From Eubacteriales bacterium (GTDB taxonomy: Bacteria > Bacillota > Clostridia > Oscillospirales > CAG-272), in assembly GCA_045122255.1 (NCBI GenBank), contig JBGVHJ010000130.1:2208-66207 (forward strand): a stretch of DNA of 64,000 bases. The letters are read 5' to 3'. The translations under genes and the position numbers were made by a program. This document shows positions 1,096 through 7,649 of this stretch, piece by piece. Under the pieces are notes generated by a model, which had not been told where the DNA came from, did no database searches, and saw nothing but the letters and a program-made list of their open reading frames with translations. The first letter of the stretch is position 1; each line of letters starts with the position of its first letter.

Positions 1096-2199
1096 TTAGG
1101 CGTTGTTACCGTTTAAAATTGCGGTAAGCTGACCAAGAATATTGCCATTACCGTTCAAGGAAATGTTGCCTACGTTCTCGCAAATGCGCTCAACGTATTC
1201 CAGCTCCTTGAGCTTGTAAAGGGTCTGGTTTTCATCCATCAGCTTTGCCGTGTTCAAGAGAGAACGAGTGGATGCAACCTCCTCACGGCGAGTGATTACG
1301 TTTGCTTGTGCGCGCTTTTCTGCGACAAGGACGGTGTTCATGATCTCGCGGATCTCGCCGGGAAGAATGATATCCTTGACGCCTGCATCCGTAATTTCTA
1401 CGAACAGATCCTTTTCCTTGGCTTTCAGTTTAGCGAACACAAACTCGGACATCTGATCCTTGTTTTCAAGGATCTCATCCAGCTTGTATTTGCCAACGTA
1501 TTCGCGCAGGGCAAGCTGTGCCGCCACGTGCATTTGCTCTGCGAAATCATCGATCTCGGTCAGAATCTTGACGTAGTCGGTCACGCGGTAGTTGCAGACA
1601 AAATTGATGCGGAGAGAAACCTTATCTGCGGTAAGGATCTCCTGACCCGTGATATCCATTTGTGTCAAACGGGTATCCACAAAGCCCACGTCTACTTTAA
1701 TGGGAGTTTTCCAGAAGTAGTAAGTGCCTGCATCCAAAATGCGCTCAAGCTTCTGATTGAAGTAGAGTCTTGCCTTCTGGTATTCGGCAACCTCGATCTT
1801 GGTGTAATAGATCTGAGGGATTTTTGAGAAGATGTACTCGGGGATGGATTCGTCAACTGTAGGTGTAGAGATATCCACGATTTTGAATTCGTGTTGATCT
1901 ACGACAGACCAAAAGGCATATTTGCCGTGACGAAGAACGGAAGAAAACTTACCGTTTACATAGTGGAGAGCAAGTTCCTCGTCGCCTACTTCGACGACTG
2001 CAACTTGATCGACAACTGCTTTGTCTGCAAGCAAGGTTTCAAGAGCGCACTTGCTGCAAACGATAGGCTGTCCCAAGTTGGAAATCTCAATCTCCTTGCC
2101 GTTAAACAGGTGATATTTGCCTGCACCGAGCGTTTTTGTATACTTTCCGTTTTTGAAGAGAAACCCCTTCTGATTTTCATTAATAATCATCTTTTTCAT
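1096..2199 (-). CDS. slipin family protein (SPFH/Band-7 domain)
   Basis: A 367-aa ORF with a C-terminal SPFH core (ILTADKVSLRINFVCNYRV, AQLALREYVG, IILPGEIREIMN, AEKRAQANVITRREE). A GGAGG RBS precedes the ATG at 2199. It is co-directional with rtcB, 77 nt upstream of it. Confidence 0.85.
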   Translation of the reverse strand: MKKMIINENQKGFLFKNGKYTKTLGAGKYHLFNGKEIEISNLGQPIVCSKCALETLLADKAVVDQVAVVEVGDEELALHYVNGKFSSVLRHGKYAFWSVVDQHEFKIVDISTPTVDESIPEYIFSKIPQIYYTKIEVAEYQKARLYFNQKLERILDAGTYYFWKTPIKVDVGFVDTRLTQMDITGQEILTADKVSLRINFVCNYRVTDYVKILTEIDDFAEQMHVAAQLALREYVGKYKLDEILENKDQMSEFVFAKLKAKEKDLFVEITDAGVKDIILPGEIREIMNTVLVAEKRAQANVITRREEVASTRSLLNTAKLMDENQTLYKLKELEYVERICENVGNISLNGNGNILGQLTAILNGNNA

Positions 2200-2216
2200 A
2201 ATAAGTTATCCTCCTT

Positions 2217-2645
2217 AAAGGTAGTAAAGTCGCCTCGCTATCATTCATGCAAAAGCAGCGGCTGAAAATTTGAGTACCTCCTGCACAGTGCGGAAAGAAA
2301 TCTTTTGGCACTGTTTGGGATAACACGGTATCCATTCTCAGGCAAGGCCCCATTTGCATTGCTCTGCGAGGCGTACCGAAGCACTTCTCGCTTTGCCGAA
2401 TGATAACGAATCCTGAACAGAAATGTTCTCTTGCACACAATATCGTGCGCGTCATCTTTTGCGTCCCGAAGGACAAATCTTCCAAACCGCTGGCGATATG
2501 CTTTTGCATACGGCGGGATTCGAACCCACGAATATCGAGCTTGACAGGCTCAAGGAGCAAGTGTTCTTCTGGCATACACTTTGGAACATCCTCGTGCACC
2601 GCTGTGAAGGATCAACTCAAACACTGGCTTGAAGTAACCTTGCAA
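2217..2645 (-). ncRNA. Structured non-coding leader or ncRNA upstream of slipin-rtcB; class unknown
   Basis: About 430 nt with no RBS-preceded ORF. On the minus strand there are several exact hairpins. They are GUCC-UUCG-GGAC (2463..2474), CGAG-AA-GUGC-UUCG-GUAC-GC-CUCG (2367..2390), ACAGUGC/GCACUGU (2285..2314), GGAUA/UAUCC (2318..2333) and UAUGC-AAAA-GCAUA (2498..2511). It also contains the tRNA-like module at 2505..2552. Whether it is a 5' UTR or a separate RNA cannot be decided from sequence. Confidence 0.5.
2505..2552 (-). ncRNA. tRNA-Asp(GUC)-like 3' portion (anticodon arm, variable loop, T-arm, 3' acceptor strand) with no matching 5' half
   Basis: The minus strand reads UGAGC-CUGUCAA-GCUCG AUAUUC GUGGG-UUCGAAU-CCCGC CGUAUGC A. 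This gives a 7-nt loop with U33-GUC-A37, a canonical GG-UUCGAAUCC T-arm and a 7-nt acceptor-like tail. The upstream sequence does not supply a complementary GCAUACG acceptor strand or a D-arm, so it is not a functional tRNA gene. Confidence 0.5.
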
Positions 2646-2649
2646 GTAT

Positions 2650-2658
2650 ATTTTACCA
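2650..2658 (-). promoter_or_regulatory. Candidate extended -10 element (TGgTAAAAT) for the structured leader/slipin-rtcB transcript
   Basis: The minus strand reads ..GGAATGGTAAAATATACTTG.., which matches TGnTAxAAT. The -35 is weak (GTGAAA/CGTGAA). It lies just downstream of the WYL-gene terminator and two long inverted repeats. Confidence 0.3.
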
Positions 2659-2699
2659 TTCCGGTCACCGTTTTTCACGGAAAAAAAGCTGCGAAAACA

Positions 2700-2805
2700 C
2701 ACGGCGCGTGCAATTTTTCAATAAATTGAACAAACATTTGCGCCGTGCTGAAATATTCCTCGCAGTTTGAACAACCGCGTTTCGCAAGCGAAAACGGAAT
2801 ATTTC
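2700..2805. repeat. Two adjacent long inverted repeats (8-bp CACGGCGC/GCGCCGTG at 2700..2747; 10-bp GAAATATTCC/GGAATATTTC at 2750..2805), each with a nested inner hairpin
   Basis: The complementarity is exact and read directly from the sequence. The inner stems are CAATTT/AAATTG and CGTTTCGC/GCGAAAACG. The repeats sit between the WYL operon terminator and the candidate promoter, so they could be operators or RNA structure. Confidence 0.7.
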
Positions 2806-2829
2806 CTAAGGCCAGCAAAAAGCCGCGAA

Positions 2830-2858
2830 AATAACAAAAAAGCCCTCGAATGAGAGCT
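2830..2858 (-). terminator. Rho-independent terminator after the WYL gene pair
   Basis: The minus strand reads AGCUCUC-AUUC-GAGGGCU (one mismatch) followed by UUUUUUGUUAUUUU. It lies 7 nt after the stop codon at 2865..2867. Confidence 0.55.
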
Positions 2859-2864
2859 TTTTCA

Positions 2865-3776
2865 CTATTTTAATCCACAATTTAACTGTTTTTTCAGCTT
2901 TTCGATGATCAATTGCTTGAAAGATCCCGATCCGATAACCTCTACCATCGGTCCAAAGGAAAGGATTCTTATCACCATTTCGGGTTCATCATCGTGAGCA
3001 TATTTGATTTTTACGAGGTAATACTTTTTGTCAAGCTTTTCGGCTTGCTTTTCAAAATGGGCAAAATGGAGCATAAATCGTTCCATTGCATTCCGCTCGT
3101 CACGAATCTTTACGGTGATCGTGTCGTAAATCACCGCCTTTTCCTCACCTACCGATTGCCTTTCTCCGGTGTAATGAGCACAGGATCTGATCTTGGCAAG
3201 GTTGACGGTTGAAACGGCACGCCATCCCGCAGTGATCAATCTGAACTTGTCATCCTTTTCGGAATATTCGAGTCTTACAGGGCGGCATCTGACAAACATG
3301 GTGTTGCCCTTGCGGTTGACCATTTCGAACTTGATCTGAGAATCTTTTCGTATCGCCTCTAAAATGATTCGGAATTGTCTTATGTATTCTTCATCCTCAA
3401 AGGGATCTCCGTCGCCGTACTTATCGTAGACATGATAATCCGCAGGGGTGAAAAGTGGCTCCACGCCGTCAAGATTGGGAAATTCCACGCCGAACAATTT
3501 TACACGCGGGTCAAGCGAAATGGCTTTCAACCATTGCTTTTGAAGTGTGGTCAGCGGCATTGTTGGCTTGTGTTCAAGTGAGGTGGTCATATCGGAATGC
3601 ACGAGCTGCCATTTCTCGGTTTTGAGGGAGGGCATGATAGTTAATACACTCTCACCGAATGCACGCTCGGCTACGATCTTTTGCAATTCCTTTTCGGAAT
3701 GCTCGCCGTCAATGATGCCGGATATAATGGCGGCAACCGTATTGTAATATGCAGAGTAAAGCTCGGAAAATATCAT
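2865..3776 (-). CDS. WYL domain-containing protein (second of a pair)
   Basis: It has a WYL-type core (MFVRCRPVRLEYSEKDDKFRLITAG) followed by a WCX-like C-terminal beta-rich region. I place the start at MIFSELY (ATG 3776) because that gives an ATGA stop/start overlap with the upstream gene. Confidence 0.75.
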   Translation of the reverse strand: MIFSELYSAYYNTVAAIISGIIDGEHSEKELQKIVAERAFGESVLTIMPSLKTEKWQLVHSDMTTSLEHKPTMPLTTLQKQWLKAISLDPRVKLFGVEFPNLDGVEPLFTPADYHVYDKYGDGDPFEDEEYIRQFRIILEAIRKDSQIKFEMVNRKGNTMFVRCRPVRLEYSEKDDKFRLITAGWRAVSTVNLAKIRSCAHYTGERQSVGEEKAVIYDTITVKIRDERNAMERFMLHFAHFEKQAEKLDKKYYLVKIKYAHDDEPEMVIRILSFGPMVEVIGSGSFKQLIIEKLKKQLNCGLK

Positions 3777-5032
3777 TCGCTTACCTCCTCTTTTACATCG
3801 TACATCCAATACATAGCTTCCAAGTCCTTTTTGAATTGGTTCTCAACGCTACGATTGGAGAAGTTCATTTTTACGATACGGCAGATAAAGGTTCTGATCC
3901 AAGGGATCATCTCGCTTGAATCATAAACATCAGCAGAAAATCGATAGGTGTTCTCGTCCAGCTTTTCTACCGTTCCGACGCGCTTTTCGCGTTCAAGGCG
4001 CTTGATAATATATTCCTCATTGTCTTCCACCTTAACCGTAAATTCTACGTGCTCAAGGTGCTCCACGCCCCATTTGTTGCGCTTAACACTAACTCCCCAC
4101 ATCTTGCTTTGCATTCTGTCCAGCTCCGCACGAAGCTCGTCAAAGCGAGGAGTGGGATCTTCAAGCTTTACGTTGGATAAGTAATCCACACGGTAAGAGT
4201 GGAAGGAATTGTATTCAGGCAGATACGCAAGCAGATGCTGTCTGCCGCTTTGCACGCTGATGAACACACGAAGCGGAACGATACGGTTTCGTCTCGGCAT
4301 ATCTCTGCGACGGCTCATATTCGATATCGTTACAGCGCGCTTTTCTCTCATTGCCGTGAACAGAGAAGCAAGAACGCCGCTGTCAATGGCACCGGTTATG
4401 TAATGATGCTTGAAGGTGAACGCATCGGTATCGGATTCCTCTTTGTCGAGTATAAACGATCCGACGACTCCACAGGGAGCAACCTCCGAGAAATAATGCA
4501 AGACCTCGTCAAGGTCGGCAATGTCAGTATTATCGGCTCTGCGATAATATGCCTTTCGTCCTTCTTTTTCTGCCACGATAATTCCGGCTTCGCAGTATTC
4601 CTTAAGCTTTTTGCGAACGGTGGACTCATCGTACATCTGGGGGCTTTCAAAGCCAGACAGATATTTCTCATCAATTTTCTCAAGCAGCTCGGAAATAGTA
4701 CGCTTGACAGACGGATCGTGGAGAATGTCGAAGATAATGAAATGCAACGTAATATCGCCATCGGTAAAGCTCTTTGCTTTCCAAGCATTGTACAGCGGGT
4801 TGTGCCTGATCGTGCGGCTATCGATGGAGATGAAAACGTTTTTACCTTCGGGAGTGCGAACGAAGCTCATGTGATCGCCGAGCCAGCTTTCAAGGCGACG
4901 GCGCTCGTCATCGTAAGAACGCGCACTCTTGCTTTGATAGTCGTCACGGCTCTTGAAGCCGTAAACGTAGAAATCACGCATATATGCTCTGATTTTCTCA
5001 AAATTTTTGATAAGCTCACTGTATGAGGACAT
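3773..5032 (-). CDS. WYL domain-containing putative transcriptional regulator (first of a pair)
   Basis: A 419-aa ORF. It has an N-terminal wHTH-like region, a central WYL core (RIVPLRVFISVQSGRQHLLAYLPEYNSFHSYRVDYLSNV) and a C-terminal extension. It is translationally coupled to the next gene. Confidence 0.8.
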   Translation of the reverse strand: MSSYSELIKNFEKIRAYMRDFYVYGFKSRDDYQSKSARSYDDERRRLESWLGDHMSFVRTPEGKNVFISIDSRTIRHNPLYNAWKAKSFTDGDITLHFIIFDILHDPSVKRTISELLEKIDEKYLSGFESPQMYDESTVRKKLKEYCEAGIIVAEKEGRKAYYRRADNTDIADLDEVLHYFSEVAPCGVVGSFILDKEESDTDAFTFKHHYITGAIDSGVLASLFTAMREKRAVTISNMSRRRDMPRRNRIVPLRVFISVQSGRQHLLAYLPEYNSFHSYRVDYLSNVKLEDPTPRFDELRAELDRMQSKMWGVSVKRNKWGVEHLEHVEFTVKVEDNEEYIIKRLEREKRVGTVEKLDENTYRFSADVYDSSEMIPWIRTFICRIVKMNFSNRSVENQFKKDLEAMYWMYDVKEEVSE

Positions 5033-6097: not shown

Positions 6098-6127
6098 ACA
6101 AATAATTCCTTTCTTCAATTGCGATTT

Positions 6128-6184
6128 TTATTTCTGCGACTTTCCTGCGAGGAAGATGGGATCGCGCATTAGTTCTTTTACCAT
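6128..6184 (-). pseudogene. Duplicated, diverged 5' fragment of def (18 codons then stop)
   Basis: The minus strand encodes MVKELMRDPIFLAGKSQK*, compared with the real def N-terminus MIKELMHDPIFLAGKSEV. The nucleotide match is about 80% over about 49 nt (6136..6184 vs 5448..5496). Confidence 0.7.
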
Positions 6185-6201
6185 GTTGTTTCTCCGTATC
6201 T

Positions 6202-6855
6202 TTACTCAACTCCGTGCATCTCCATCAAATCGCGCAGATCTCCGAAGCTCTTGTCGTACTGCGCCCTGGAGATTGCACCGTTTTGAAGGAAGGTATCGAG
6301 CAATTTCTTCTGCTGACGGAACAGTTCAACCTTCTGCCAACGCTCCTTGGTCATAAGATTCGAGTGCCCCGTGCGGATCTCGCCAAGGAGCGACACTTCA
6401 ATGCCCTCTGTCTTGCGCTGATAGACAAATCCGAGCTTTTCCTGCACGCGACGGGATTTCTCATTGCCGTCGTAATAGCCGCACCAAATGCGGTTCATCC
6501 CAAGATCCTCAAAGGCGTAGCGGAGCATCTCACGCGCGGCCTCGGGAATCAATCCCTGCCCCCAAAACGGTTTTCCTATCCAATAACCAAGTTCGTATTC
6601 ATCGTCCTGCTCGGCGAGGTCATTGCGATGAAAACCGATGCTGCCAATGGGCTTTCCATTCTCTTTCAGACACACGGCAAAGGTATCGGGAGCGGACAGC
6701 ACCGTGCGAATGATTTCGCGGCTGTTCTCCACGCTCGTGTGAGGTGGCCATCCGGCAGATGGGCCTACCTCGGGGGCGCTTGCGTATGTGTATAAGTCAT
6801 CTGCATCCTCTTCGCGCCATAGGCGGAGAAGGAGGCGGGTTGTTTCCAAATTCAC
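6202..6855 (-). CDS. GNAT family N-acetyltransferase (RimJ/RimL-like) with C-terminal extension
   Basis: The N-terminus is TTRLLLRLWREEDADDLY, and the acetyl-CoA region reads WGQGLIPEAAREMLRYAF..NEKSRRVQEKLGF. Confidence 0.85.
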   Translation of the reverse strand: MNLETTRLLLRLWREEDADDLYTYASAPEVGPSAGWPPHTSVENSREIIRTVLSAPDTFAVCLKENGKPIGSIGFHRNDLAEQDDEYELGYWIGKPFWGQGLIPEAAREMLRYAFEDLGMNRIWCGYYDGNEKSRRVQEKLGFVYQRKTEGIEVSLLGEIRTGHSNLMTKERWQKVELFRQQKKLLDTFLQNGAISRAQYDKSFGDLRDLMEMHGVE

Positions 6856-6857
6856 CT

Positions 6858-7649
6858 TTAAAACTCCCCTTCTTTAAGTCCAAATCCTATTCTCCATACT
6901 TCCCTGTCTGTTTTAATCTCAAATATTTTCACGACAGACTGATATAATTGAGGATGTCGTTCGCAACGAGATGTATCGAATACATAGCGATAATCATCCC
7001 AATTACGGAATTTATGGATGTCATATGTGTTGTAAGTACAGCCTACTATCTTTTGCAAACCTTCATCAACCTTCAAAATGTGGTCGTAAGATGCAACAAG
7101 CATAACCATCTTCATCATCCAAACGAAGCGATCATACCATTCAACGTCATTGGGATCATCATTGCAAACATCAAATTGGTCATAAATAGCCGTAGACCAA
7201 AACCAGGATGCAGAGTCCGCATCCATACCCGCATCAAGAAGAAGTTTCAGTGATTTAATACCATACTCATTTTCAAGAAAGCAAAACAAGGGGTGCAGAC
7301 TATTATCGTTATCGTACGGAATGCGAGGCGATGACACATCCATACCATATTTCAAAAAGACCTCTGTGATTTTAGGAAGGTGAGGAAGATACTGATCATT
7401 AAAATACCCGTCTGGGCCAACCAGTTCTCCATAAATATGCTCAAGCAATCCCCATCCGTGTCCTGAAGTAGGGCCGAGAGGATCAGCTCCTTTTTTCAGA
7501 AGTTCTTCTACTGTATGAAAGTTTATACTCTCTTTTTGACATTCTTCGTATAGCTTTTTATTCAGTTCGATTTCTTCTGGCGTGTATATCCCCTCATATT
7601 TTTGCGTGTGTTCACGTTCGTAGTCGTTTGTATATTCGTATTCGCCCAC
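6858..7649 (-). CDS. hypothetical protein (one ankyrin-like LLKKGADP motif)
   Basis: A 263-aa ORF tightly packed between neighbours (2-nt gap to the GNAT gene). No family is recognised with confidence. Confidence 0.6.
   Translation of the reverse strand: MGEYEYTNDYEREHTQKYEGIYTPEEIELNKKLYEECQKESINFHTVEELLKKGADPLGPTSGHGWGLLEHIYGELVGPDGYFNDQYLPHLPKITEVFLKYGMDVSSPRIPYDNDNSLHPLFCFLENEYGIKSLKLLLDAGMDADSASWFWSTAIYDQFDVCNDDPNDVEWYDRFVWMMKMVMLVASYDHILKVDEGLQKIVGCTYNTYDIHKFRNWDDYRYVFDTSRCERHPQLYQSVVKIFEIKTDREVWRIGFGLKEGEF

Follow-up and report, generated by a model that had tools for sequence, protein, structure and literature searches.

A Conserved RNA with a Predicted Circularly Permuted tRNA-like Core Upstream of Slipin Genes in Clostridia

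Two described RNA systems come closest to the element analyzed here. YrlA, a Y RNA, is composed of V, T, acceptor-stem-like (AS) and D stem-loops (Chen et al. 2014, PMC4201824); this type of layout has been described as a circular permutation of tRNA (10.1101/312249), and a crystal structure is available (6CU1, Wang et al. 2018). The second, a Band-7-associated tRNA-like RNA (b7a-tRNA), was predicted beside Band-7 proteins and RtcB by Burroughs & Aravind (2016), as reported by Wang et al. (10.1101/312249). In that account, the b7a-tRNA is described as strongly tRNA-resembling and is suggested to work with the Band-7 module as its RNA partner, in a role like that of YrlA. Our literature searches found no later paper on it. 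Here we examine a 64,000-nt stretch of DNA from an Eubacteriales bacterium (GenBank assembly GCA_045122255.1, contig JBGVHJ010000130.1, positions 2,208 to 66,207; hereafter ‘the window’), which carries a predicted tRNA-like RNA followed by a slipin/SPFH gene and an RtcB RNA ligase gene. All window features discussed below lie on the minus strand, with coordinates counted from the first letter of the window.

A tRNA-like RNA beside an SPFH/Band-7 gene and RtcB is what that account reports for the b7a-tRNA, and the gene context in the window is identical; the window RNA is probably the b7a-tRNA of Burroughs & Aravind. The class dates from a computational prediction of 2016 and has no Rfam entry, and comparative sequence analysis argues that the feature is real and functional. 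Its core is, as judged from covariation, a circularly permuted tRNA mimic with the order V arm, T arm, closed acceptor stem, D arm. The core is predicted to make up a single domain within a larger conserved and structured RNA (~440 nt), which continues into the slipin mRNA. By analogy with the Y RNAs, we consider it probable, at roughly 60%, that the RNA is a partner or RNA subunit of a slipin-RtcB repair complex.

The tRNA-like core and its conservation

The initial annotation of the window had noted a tRNA-Asp(GUC)-like half-molecule in the leader of rtcB and had offered two explanations, a functional tRNA mimic or the scar of a tRNA-targeted integration. The parts that it listed are present: a 5-bp stem (U2552-GAGC/GCUC-G2536) around the loop CUGUCAA (2547..2541, with GUC at 2545..2543), a variable-loop-like linker AUAUUC (2535..2530), a T arm GUGGG-UUCGAAU-CCCGC (2529..2513, with one U-G wobble) that has the tRNA T-loop consensus and an invariant closing G-C pair, and the strand CGUAUGC (2512..2506), followed by A2505 and folding back onto GCAUA (2501..2497). 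The fold-back forms a closed acceptor-like stem, CGUAUGC-AAAA-GCAUAUCG (2512..2494), of 7 bp with one bulged base, and directly downstream lies a D-arm-like hairpin, CCA-GCGGUU-UGG (2493..2482). The module therefore consists of a T arm, a closed acceptor stem and a D arm, and is no half-molecule; the AS adjoins both of its neighbors without a linker. The exact T-arm pattern GGTTCRANTCCYRC has a single occurrence in the 64 kb. A single-sequence fold shows no extra stability relative to shuffled sequences (z = -0.26), and thermodynamics by itself would have missed the element.

An alignment of slipin proteins yielded 80 loci (L001-L080) from species-representative genomes, with slipin identities of 56-97%, over which the order WYL, WYL, RNA, slipin, (RtcB) is kept. 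All 80 loci are from Clostridia, chiefly gut and rumen metagenome-assembled genomes. With 7,838 slipin relatives at E <= 1e-20, the cassette is a common one among Clostridia of the gut and rumen. In most of the 80 loci, a T arm matching G[CU]RGG-UUCGAAU-CCYRC precedes slipin by ~300 nt. After the T arm, the relatives have a hairpin whose sequence changes while its pairing is kept, and then CCN-(R)YGG(N)U-NGG. A covariance model (R1) built from 23 cores, with the window sequence as part of the seed, finds one match in the window (2478-2535, minus strand, 67.7 bits) and matches 61 loci at E <= 1e-4, every one upstream of slipin and on the same strand. These 61 are counted among ~73 slipin loci that have enough upstream DNA, a few of which give a weak or no R1 score; seven others have no upstream sequence.

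Standard pairs make up 96.6% of cells in the R1 alignment, and 13 of the 16 pairs show changes on both sides. Compensatory cells number 184, compared with 41 +/- 7 in shuffles, and sliding the partners by 1-3 columns lowers pairing to 28-50%. The T-stem is 100% paired, with double changes in three of its five pairs. In the AS, all eight modelled pairs have both-sided changes, and its length varies from 4 to >9 bp within the family. The D arm is likewise 100% paired, with an invariant GG, and its third pair changes across loci (A-U in 43, G-C in 8, G-U in 3, U-A in 3 and C-G in 1). The element is far beyond chance, and its core is conserved with compensatory changes in >60 species-level genomes. 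Conservation of this kind at many slipin-rtcB loci supports the functional tRNA-mimic reading of the initial annotation.

Since the loci had been gathered through slipin, we made a reverse test in which a DNA pattern of the T arm and D arm was scanned against metagenome contigs. All ten matches of at least 51 bits are in the same context, with slipin or an extra open reading frame (ORF), described below, directly downstream and with the WYL pair upstream wherever the contig extends that far. Metagenome matches with lower scores fall on the 3′ ends of ordinary tRNAs (...CCA), and slipin is not found near them. In viral contigs, the 22 pattern matches are all weak (<= 33 bits), and there is therefore no sign of a phage-borne family.

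Taken alone, the window does resemble the 3′ two-thirds of tRNA-Asp. ARAGORN reports pseudo-tRNAs over the V and T arms in six relatives (His, Asp twice, Lys twice, Asn), and the Rfam tRNA model reaches 28.2 bits in L027, with a further score of 26 bits among the relatives, against a threshold of 29. A functionless tRNA-Asp remnant, either an att scar or a decayed pseudogene, would produce such resemblances, but it is an extremely improbable source of an element that keeps a fixed place before slipin in >60 species-level genomes and shows compensatory changes in every helix. The element also runs on into a closed stem and a D arm, both conserved and foreign to any att scar, and its ‘anticodon’ differs among close relatives. 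In the window itself, ARAGORN reports 0 tRNA and 0 tmRNA genes across the whole 64 kb. The scar explanation was to fall if the module proved conserved with compensatory changes at many such loci, and conservation at the same place in >60 loci refutes it.

We infer that the D-loop GG is the partner of the T loop, as in the elbow of tRNA. The linker base C2530 resembles the equivalent of tRNA position 48 and is a candidate Levitt-pair partner of the first D-loop G: C occurs with G as the first D-loop purine in 45 loci, and U occurs with A in L007, L031, L037, L047 and L057. A complementary 5′ acceptor strand had been reported as missing. That statement is partly true: in the window, the conserved GUAUGCC (2577..2571) could pair with CGUAUGC at six of seven positions, two of them G-U. 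This alternative pairing with the post-T-stem strand (2506-2512), which involves many G-U pairs, is possible in ~35 of 54 loci and fails in the distant half. It excludes both the closed acceptor hairpin, which is universal, and the 5′ hairpin P1b described below, and it could be a switch or a duplication relic. In L027 (1861-1958), the tRNA-model score arises from a conserved GUAUGCU that pairs with the post-T-stem strand. The open 7-bp acceptor stem of a canonical cloverleaf is not what the alignment shows; instead, the acceptor strand is taken up in a local closed hairpin that covaries.

Comparison with YrlA, b7a-tRNA and other tRNA-like RNAs

The lead towards YrlA-type mimicry, also raised in the initial annotation, proved a good one, as the predicted architecture is YrlA-like. 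Both RNAs have the order V, T, closed AS of variable length and D, with a T-loop consensus, a D-loop GG and Levitt-type co-variation, and both genes lie inside an RtcB-containing repair operon. The V arm is the counterpart of YrlA's variable V stem-loop, and it is not required. In contrast to YrlA, the window RNA has no UA linker (the equivalent of tRNA U8/A9), and its AS abuts CCN directly. Its D arm has 3 bp (CCN-RYGGNU-NGG), whereas the YrlA consensus has 4 bp (GCUC/GAGC, GUAGCUCA..GGUAGAGC). The putative Ro60 site GNCGAAN0-1G is absent, the nearest sequence being GCRCGAGG in P1b. Finally, the pairing partner of the strand that precedes the V arm is the 5′ terminus of the same RNA, in helix P1, and not the strand that follows the D arm.

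These differences bear on whether the RNA is a true YrlA-family Y RNA that binds a Ro60 (Rsr) encoded elsewhere in the genome. The shared stem-loop order fits this proposal, and the best match of R1 in 30 kb of phage Bxz1 is the YrlA beside the Ro-like gene, at 19 bits. However, the Rfam YrlA model (RF02553) gives no match at E <= 10 in window positions 2100-2950 and none at E <= 1 in eight relatives, while the same library detects the Bxz1 YrlA at 32.5 bits as a positive control. The Ro60-site and linker motifs are lacking, and the D arm is unlike GCUCA..GGUAGAGC. Searches for a TROVE/Ro60 gene by tblastn with Bxz1 gp220 returned only noise (E > 7) in the window and L001-L080, and Pfam scans of the flanking ORFs found no TROVE domain. 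Membership in the YrlA family is therefore very unlikely. No Rfam family matched the window at the gathering threshold, and the sole signal of a permissive search of positions 2100-2950 is an 18-nt T-arm fragment of the tmRNA model, at 13.7 bits. A tRNA match is absent from that permissive list; an overlapping match of the same clan, if any, scores below the 13.7-bit tmRNA T arm.

Compared with the b7a-tRNA as summarized by Wang et al., the comparative data here favor a permuted fold in which the acceptor stem is closed and the D arm lies downstream, and a canonical cloverleaf is possible in one subfamily only. A further difference from that summary is that the tRNA-like part is here one domain of a ~440-nt RNA. 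Given the ARAGORN pseudo-tRNAs and the near-threshold Rfam tRNA score, it is understandable that the b7a-tRNA was called tRNA-resembling in that account.

Circularly permuted tRNA genes of Cyanidioschyzon merolae and some archaea likewise place the 3′ half first, with an acceptor that is initially closed and an RtcB-type ligase that is relevant (10.1101/312249). They differ in that the AS here ranges from 4 to >9 bp and the D arm is degenerate. This variable AS length and degenerate D arm make a functional tRNA product implausible, and we rejected a functional permuted tRNA gene because the acceptor-like stem has 4-5 bp in many members. We know of no bacterial splicing endonuclease. tRNA-shaped elements that are read by tRNA-binding proteins include the operator in the E. 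coli thrS leader, tmRNA and the 3′ ends of plant viruses. As in these, a tRNA-shaped element is embedded here in a larger RNA; unlike them, the window RNA has no free CCA end, no sign of aminoacylation and no following synthetase gene.

The variable arm, the surrounding leader and the operon

The V arm UGAGC-CUGUCAA-GCUCG (2552..2536) is a hairpin that varies and is dispensable, and its 7-nt loop resembles that of an anticodon arm. Across the family, the distance between GUAUGCC and the T arm varies from 19 to 119 nt, and the minimal members (L043, L047, L050, L051, L068 and L069), with a spacing of 20-27 nt, have no hairpin there. The tRNA-Asp(GUC) identity given to the arm in the initial annotation does not survive this comparison: the arm is missing in minimal members, and the triplet is GUC, GUA, GUG, GUU or AUC even between close relatives. 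At ~20 loci, an inserted module replaces or accompanies the V arm, ~40-90 nt before the main T arm. In this module, an anticodon-arm-like hairpin is enclosed by a 5-bp stem (AUCGA/UCGAU), and GGGGUUCAACUCCCC, which resembles another T arm, comes directly after; carriers of the module include L003, L008, L010, L015, L017, L019, L021, L022, L034, L045, L074 and L079.

V loops of the form YUGUNAN occur in 13 of 54 members, where N gives GUC, GUA, GUG and GUU. The loop CUGUCAA is retained on four different stems (GAGC, CUGC, AAAC and GGC), and many further loops follow the pattern CU-NNN-AA, including CUUUUAA. Judged by these patterns, the V-loop sequence does not look random, which we treat as a lead only. 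The queuosine-family tRNAs, with GUC, GUA, GUG and GUU anticodons, are the targets of colicin E5. The V arm might accordingly be imagined as an anticodon-stem-loop bait or decoy for colicin-E5-like or PrrC-like nucleases that shields tRNAs or reports damage, and the retention of CUGUCAA on four stems, the four queuosine-family anticodons among the YUGUNAN loops and the wider CU-NNN-AA pattern would all suit such a bait. The idea of a competitive inhibitor was raised for YrlA by Hughes et al. (PMC7790460), but in the Salmonella system of that study the active anticodon nuclease leaves YrlA uncut. As the V arm is missing or unrelated in most members, it cannot provide the core function, and the loop counts are not independent events because they come from related genomes. 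We consider the bait unlikely.

An extension of this idea, in our view similarly improbable, would make the leader a built-in damage sensor, in which the V-arm bait is cut by anticodon nucleases and operon output tracks nuclease activity. Cutting would release a tRNA-shaped fragment with a 2′,3′-cyclic phosphate, which could either act back on the WYL regulators or, on the slipin scaffold, be rejoined by RtcB. The alternative GUAUGCC/CGUAUGC pairing would then be a conformational switch in the subfamily of the window, and the bait loops would be CU-GUN-AA in its clade and CUUUUAA elsewhere.

The leader around the core is conserved and structured throughout, down to ~35 nt before the ribosome-binding site. 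Its 5′ domain (2644..2557, RNAalifold) is closed by helix P1, which pairs GCAAG (2643..2639) with CUUGC (2561..2557). MAFFT left the 3′ strand of P1 unaligned by column, and support for this helix therefore rests on inspection, by which it covaries in >15 loci (TGCAAGGTT/AACCTTGCA, GCAAGATCAC/GTGGTCTTGC, ACAGG/CCTGT and GCAGG/CCTGC). An unconstrained best-helix search for P1 was uninformative, as the T-run of the promoter dominates it. P1 encloses two hairpins, P1a (2632..2617) and P1b (GCG-G-UGCAC-GA-GGAUGUUCC-AAA-GUGUA-UGC, 2609..2566); P1b is long, nearly invariant and 97% paired, with two strongly covarying pairs. Two other pairings were considered and rejected. A long-range stem AUGUUCCAAA/UUUGGAAGAU (inverted repeat I9), as a Y-RNA-like closing stem, fails to pair in L014 and L019, and both of its arms lie in local hairpins that covary independently (GGN..NCC of P1b and CCN..NGG of the D arm). 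Pairing of CUUGC with GCAAAAG after hairpin H1 does not covary in L060 or L063; covariation is instead seen between CUUGC and the 5′-terminal GCAAG.

Downstream of the D arm, hairpin H1 (GUCC-UUCG-GGAC, 2474..2463) keeps its position and changes its sequence in relatives, for example to UGCCG-GAAA-CGGCA, and is followed by the conserved hairpin H2 (GCGCACG-AUAU-UGUGUGC, 2450..2433). The 3′ domain (2409..2235) has the closing helices AUCAUUC/GAAUGAU and AUGCAAA.G/C.UUUGCAU; motifs found in it across the family are GCCUUGCC, GGAUACCG, CCAAAAG, UUCCGC, ACUCAA and CAGCCGC, and the domain has no Rfam match. A single close relative, L004, carries a ~100-nt insertion within a 3′-domain hairpin (~4750-4860; columns 444-544 of alignment A2), which may be a small mobile or expansion segment.

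Upstream of the RNA, the window encodes a WYL-domain protein (PF13280, 5032..3773) and a second regulator of 314 aa, its paralogue (3809..2865). The two genes overlap by 37 nt; the second gene product has no Pfam match in the window, and its orthologues in L004 and L037 match the WCX domain. Together the two proteins resemble a WYL regulator made of two subunits. A PDB sequence search with the WYL protein found nothing. An intrinsic terminator (2858..2836) parts the regulator genes from the promoter of the RNA, and a stretch of ~660 nt between this terminator and slipin is free of ORFs. The predicted promoter is sigma-70-like (GTGAAA, a 17-nt spacer and TAAAAT, with a TG extension; 2678..2650), and its extended -10 places the predicted transcription start near 2644. 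The -10 box TGGTAAAAT is kept in alignments A2 and A7. Just upstream of it, at the place expected of a -35 element, lies a promoter-proximal motif, CGCAGCTTTTTTTCCGTGA (2693..2675), which is an invariant block in the close relatives of alignment A2 and is recognizable in distant loci. From its location, this motif may be an operator for the adjacent WYL/WCX pair.

The first gene after the RNA is slipin (PF01145, 2199..1096), preceded by the Shine-Dalgarno sequence AGGAGG (2215..2210) and followed by rtcB (PF01139, 1018..1), which continues past the window edge. The SPFH and coiled-coil region of slipin is similar to the cage-forming stomatin, QmcA and HflK, and inspection of its N-terminal ~135 residues reveals no hydrophobic anchor. 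The chief alternative to a role in a repair complex, in our estimate less probable, is a cis-acting leader whose tRNA-like fold would be bound by slipin, RtcB or another tRNA-binding factor and would tune the translation or stability of slipin-rtcB, much like the tRNA-like operator of E. coli thrS. It would account for several observations: the RNA is contiguous with the slipin mRNA; no terminator is found in the window between the predicted start (~2644) and the slipin ribosome-binding site; just 9 of 67 loci have terminator-like sites between the RNA core and the first ORF, and these are not conserved in position; and the leader stays conserved to ~35 nt before the ribosome-binding site. Where an extra ORF is inserted, the RNA is still 5′-terminal in the transcription unit, ahead of the first gene. 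On the other hand, downstream of the core we found neither a conserved terminator nor a terminator/antiterminator pair of the kind seen in riboswitch-type leaders, and, a weak 4-bp hairpin apart, no conserved pairing that would hide the ribosome-binding site. The 3′ domain is self-closed ~35 nt upstream of the Shine-Dalgarno sequence, and operon membership counts as no evidence for a role in cis.

Although the initial annotation had tied the RNA primarily to rtcB, it follows the slipin gene more closely. In ~14 loci, the RNA and slipin occur with no RtcB downstream by tblastn and unrelated genes follow. Slipin loci that lack RtcB are L007, L015, L018, L033, L043, L044, L053, L060, L064-L066, L074-L076 and L080, and in L076 slipin has neither the RNA nor a downstream RtcB. 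An additional ORF of ~205-222 aa lies between the RNA and slipin in eight loci. The extra ORF was seen in L002 (800-1468), L012, L016 (4366-4983), L019, L061 and L062 and in the metagenome loci L131, L142 and L159; it has conserved stretches including LIYHCIFSRSYDGYVRQKHIEALL and MISYWNEFYRYDCYRYKDY and belongs to no Pfam family. Named carriers among the loci include Oscillibacter valericigenes Sjm18-20 (AP012044, L037), Robinsoniella peoriensis (L043) and Hominibacterium faecale (L074). In L037, a cultured strain, rtcB (6113-7384) has an in-frame stop (PYGR*VRQ) with an IS21-type transposase pair just downstream, and may be a pseudogene or contain a sequencing error, a point that bears on the choice of a model organism.

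Proposed role of the RNA and its significance

The role that we favor for the RNA, as a partner or subunit of a slipin-RtcB repair complex, can be laid out as a sequence of steps. The WYL regulator pair would turn the promoter on, and the RNA would be made together with slipin and RtcB. Its T loop and D-loop GG would dock into a tRNA elbow and give an L shape; through this docking, we propose, the RNA would look tRNA-like to tRNA-handling proteins. The near-invariant hairpin P1b might be a protein-binding handle. In this way the RNA would serve a slipin-based particle as a Y RNA serves Ro60, tethering or positioning RtcB and broken tRNAs on the slipin oligomer.

Several points count against such a complex. 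We infer the cofactor role from analogy alone, and the identification with the b7a-tRNA draws on a secondary description. In physical terms the slipin mRNA has this RNA as its 5′ leader, which suits a role in cis just as well. The ~14 loci that pair the RNA with slipin and have no RtcB indicate that RtcB is no obligate partner. The single-sequence fold is of unremarkable stability, and the covariation alignment was fitted to the model, with the window in its seed and with related genomes as its members.

New here are a permuted tRNA core backed by covariation, an invariant hairpin on its 5′ side, another conserved domain on its 3′ side, and a conserved promoter motif beside a WYL pair. Members of the family are occasionally mis-called as tRNA genes and the family is missing from Rfam; annotation pipelines would gain from a model. 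SPFH/slipin proteins are known as membrane-scaffold cages. If the favored role is true, a soluble slipin, a tRNA-shaped RNA and an RNA ligase would together make a new type of particle, parallel to Ro60/Y RNA and, more loosely, to the vault.

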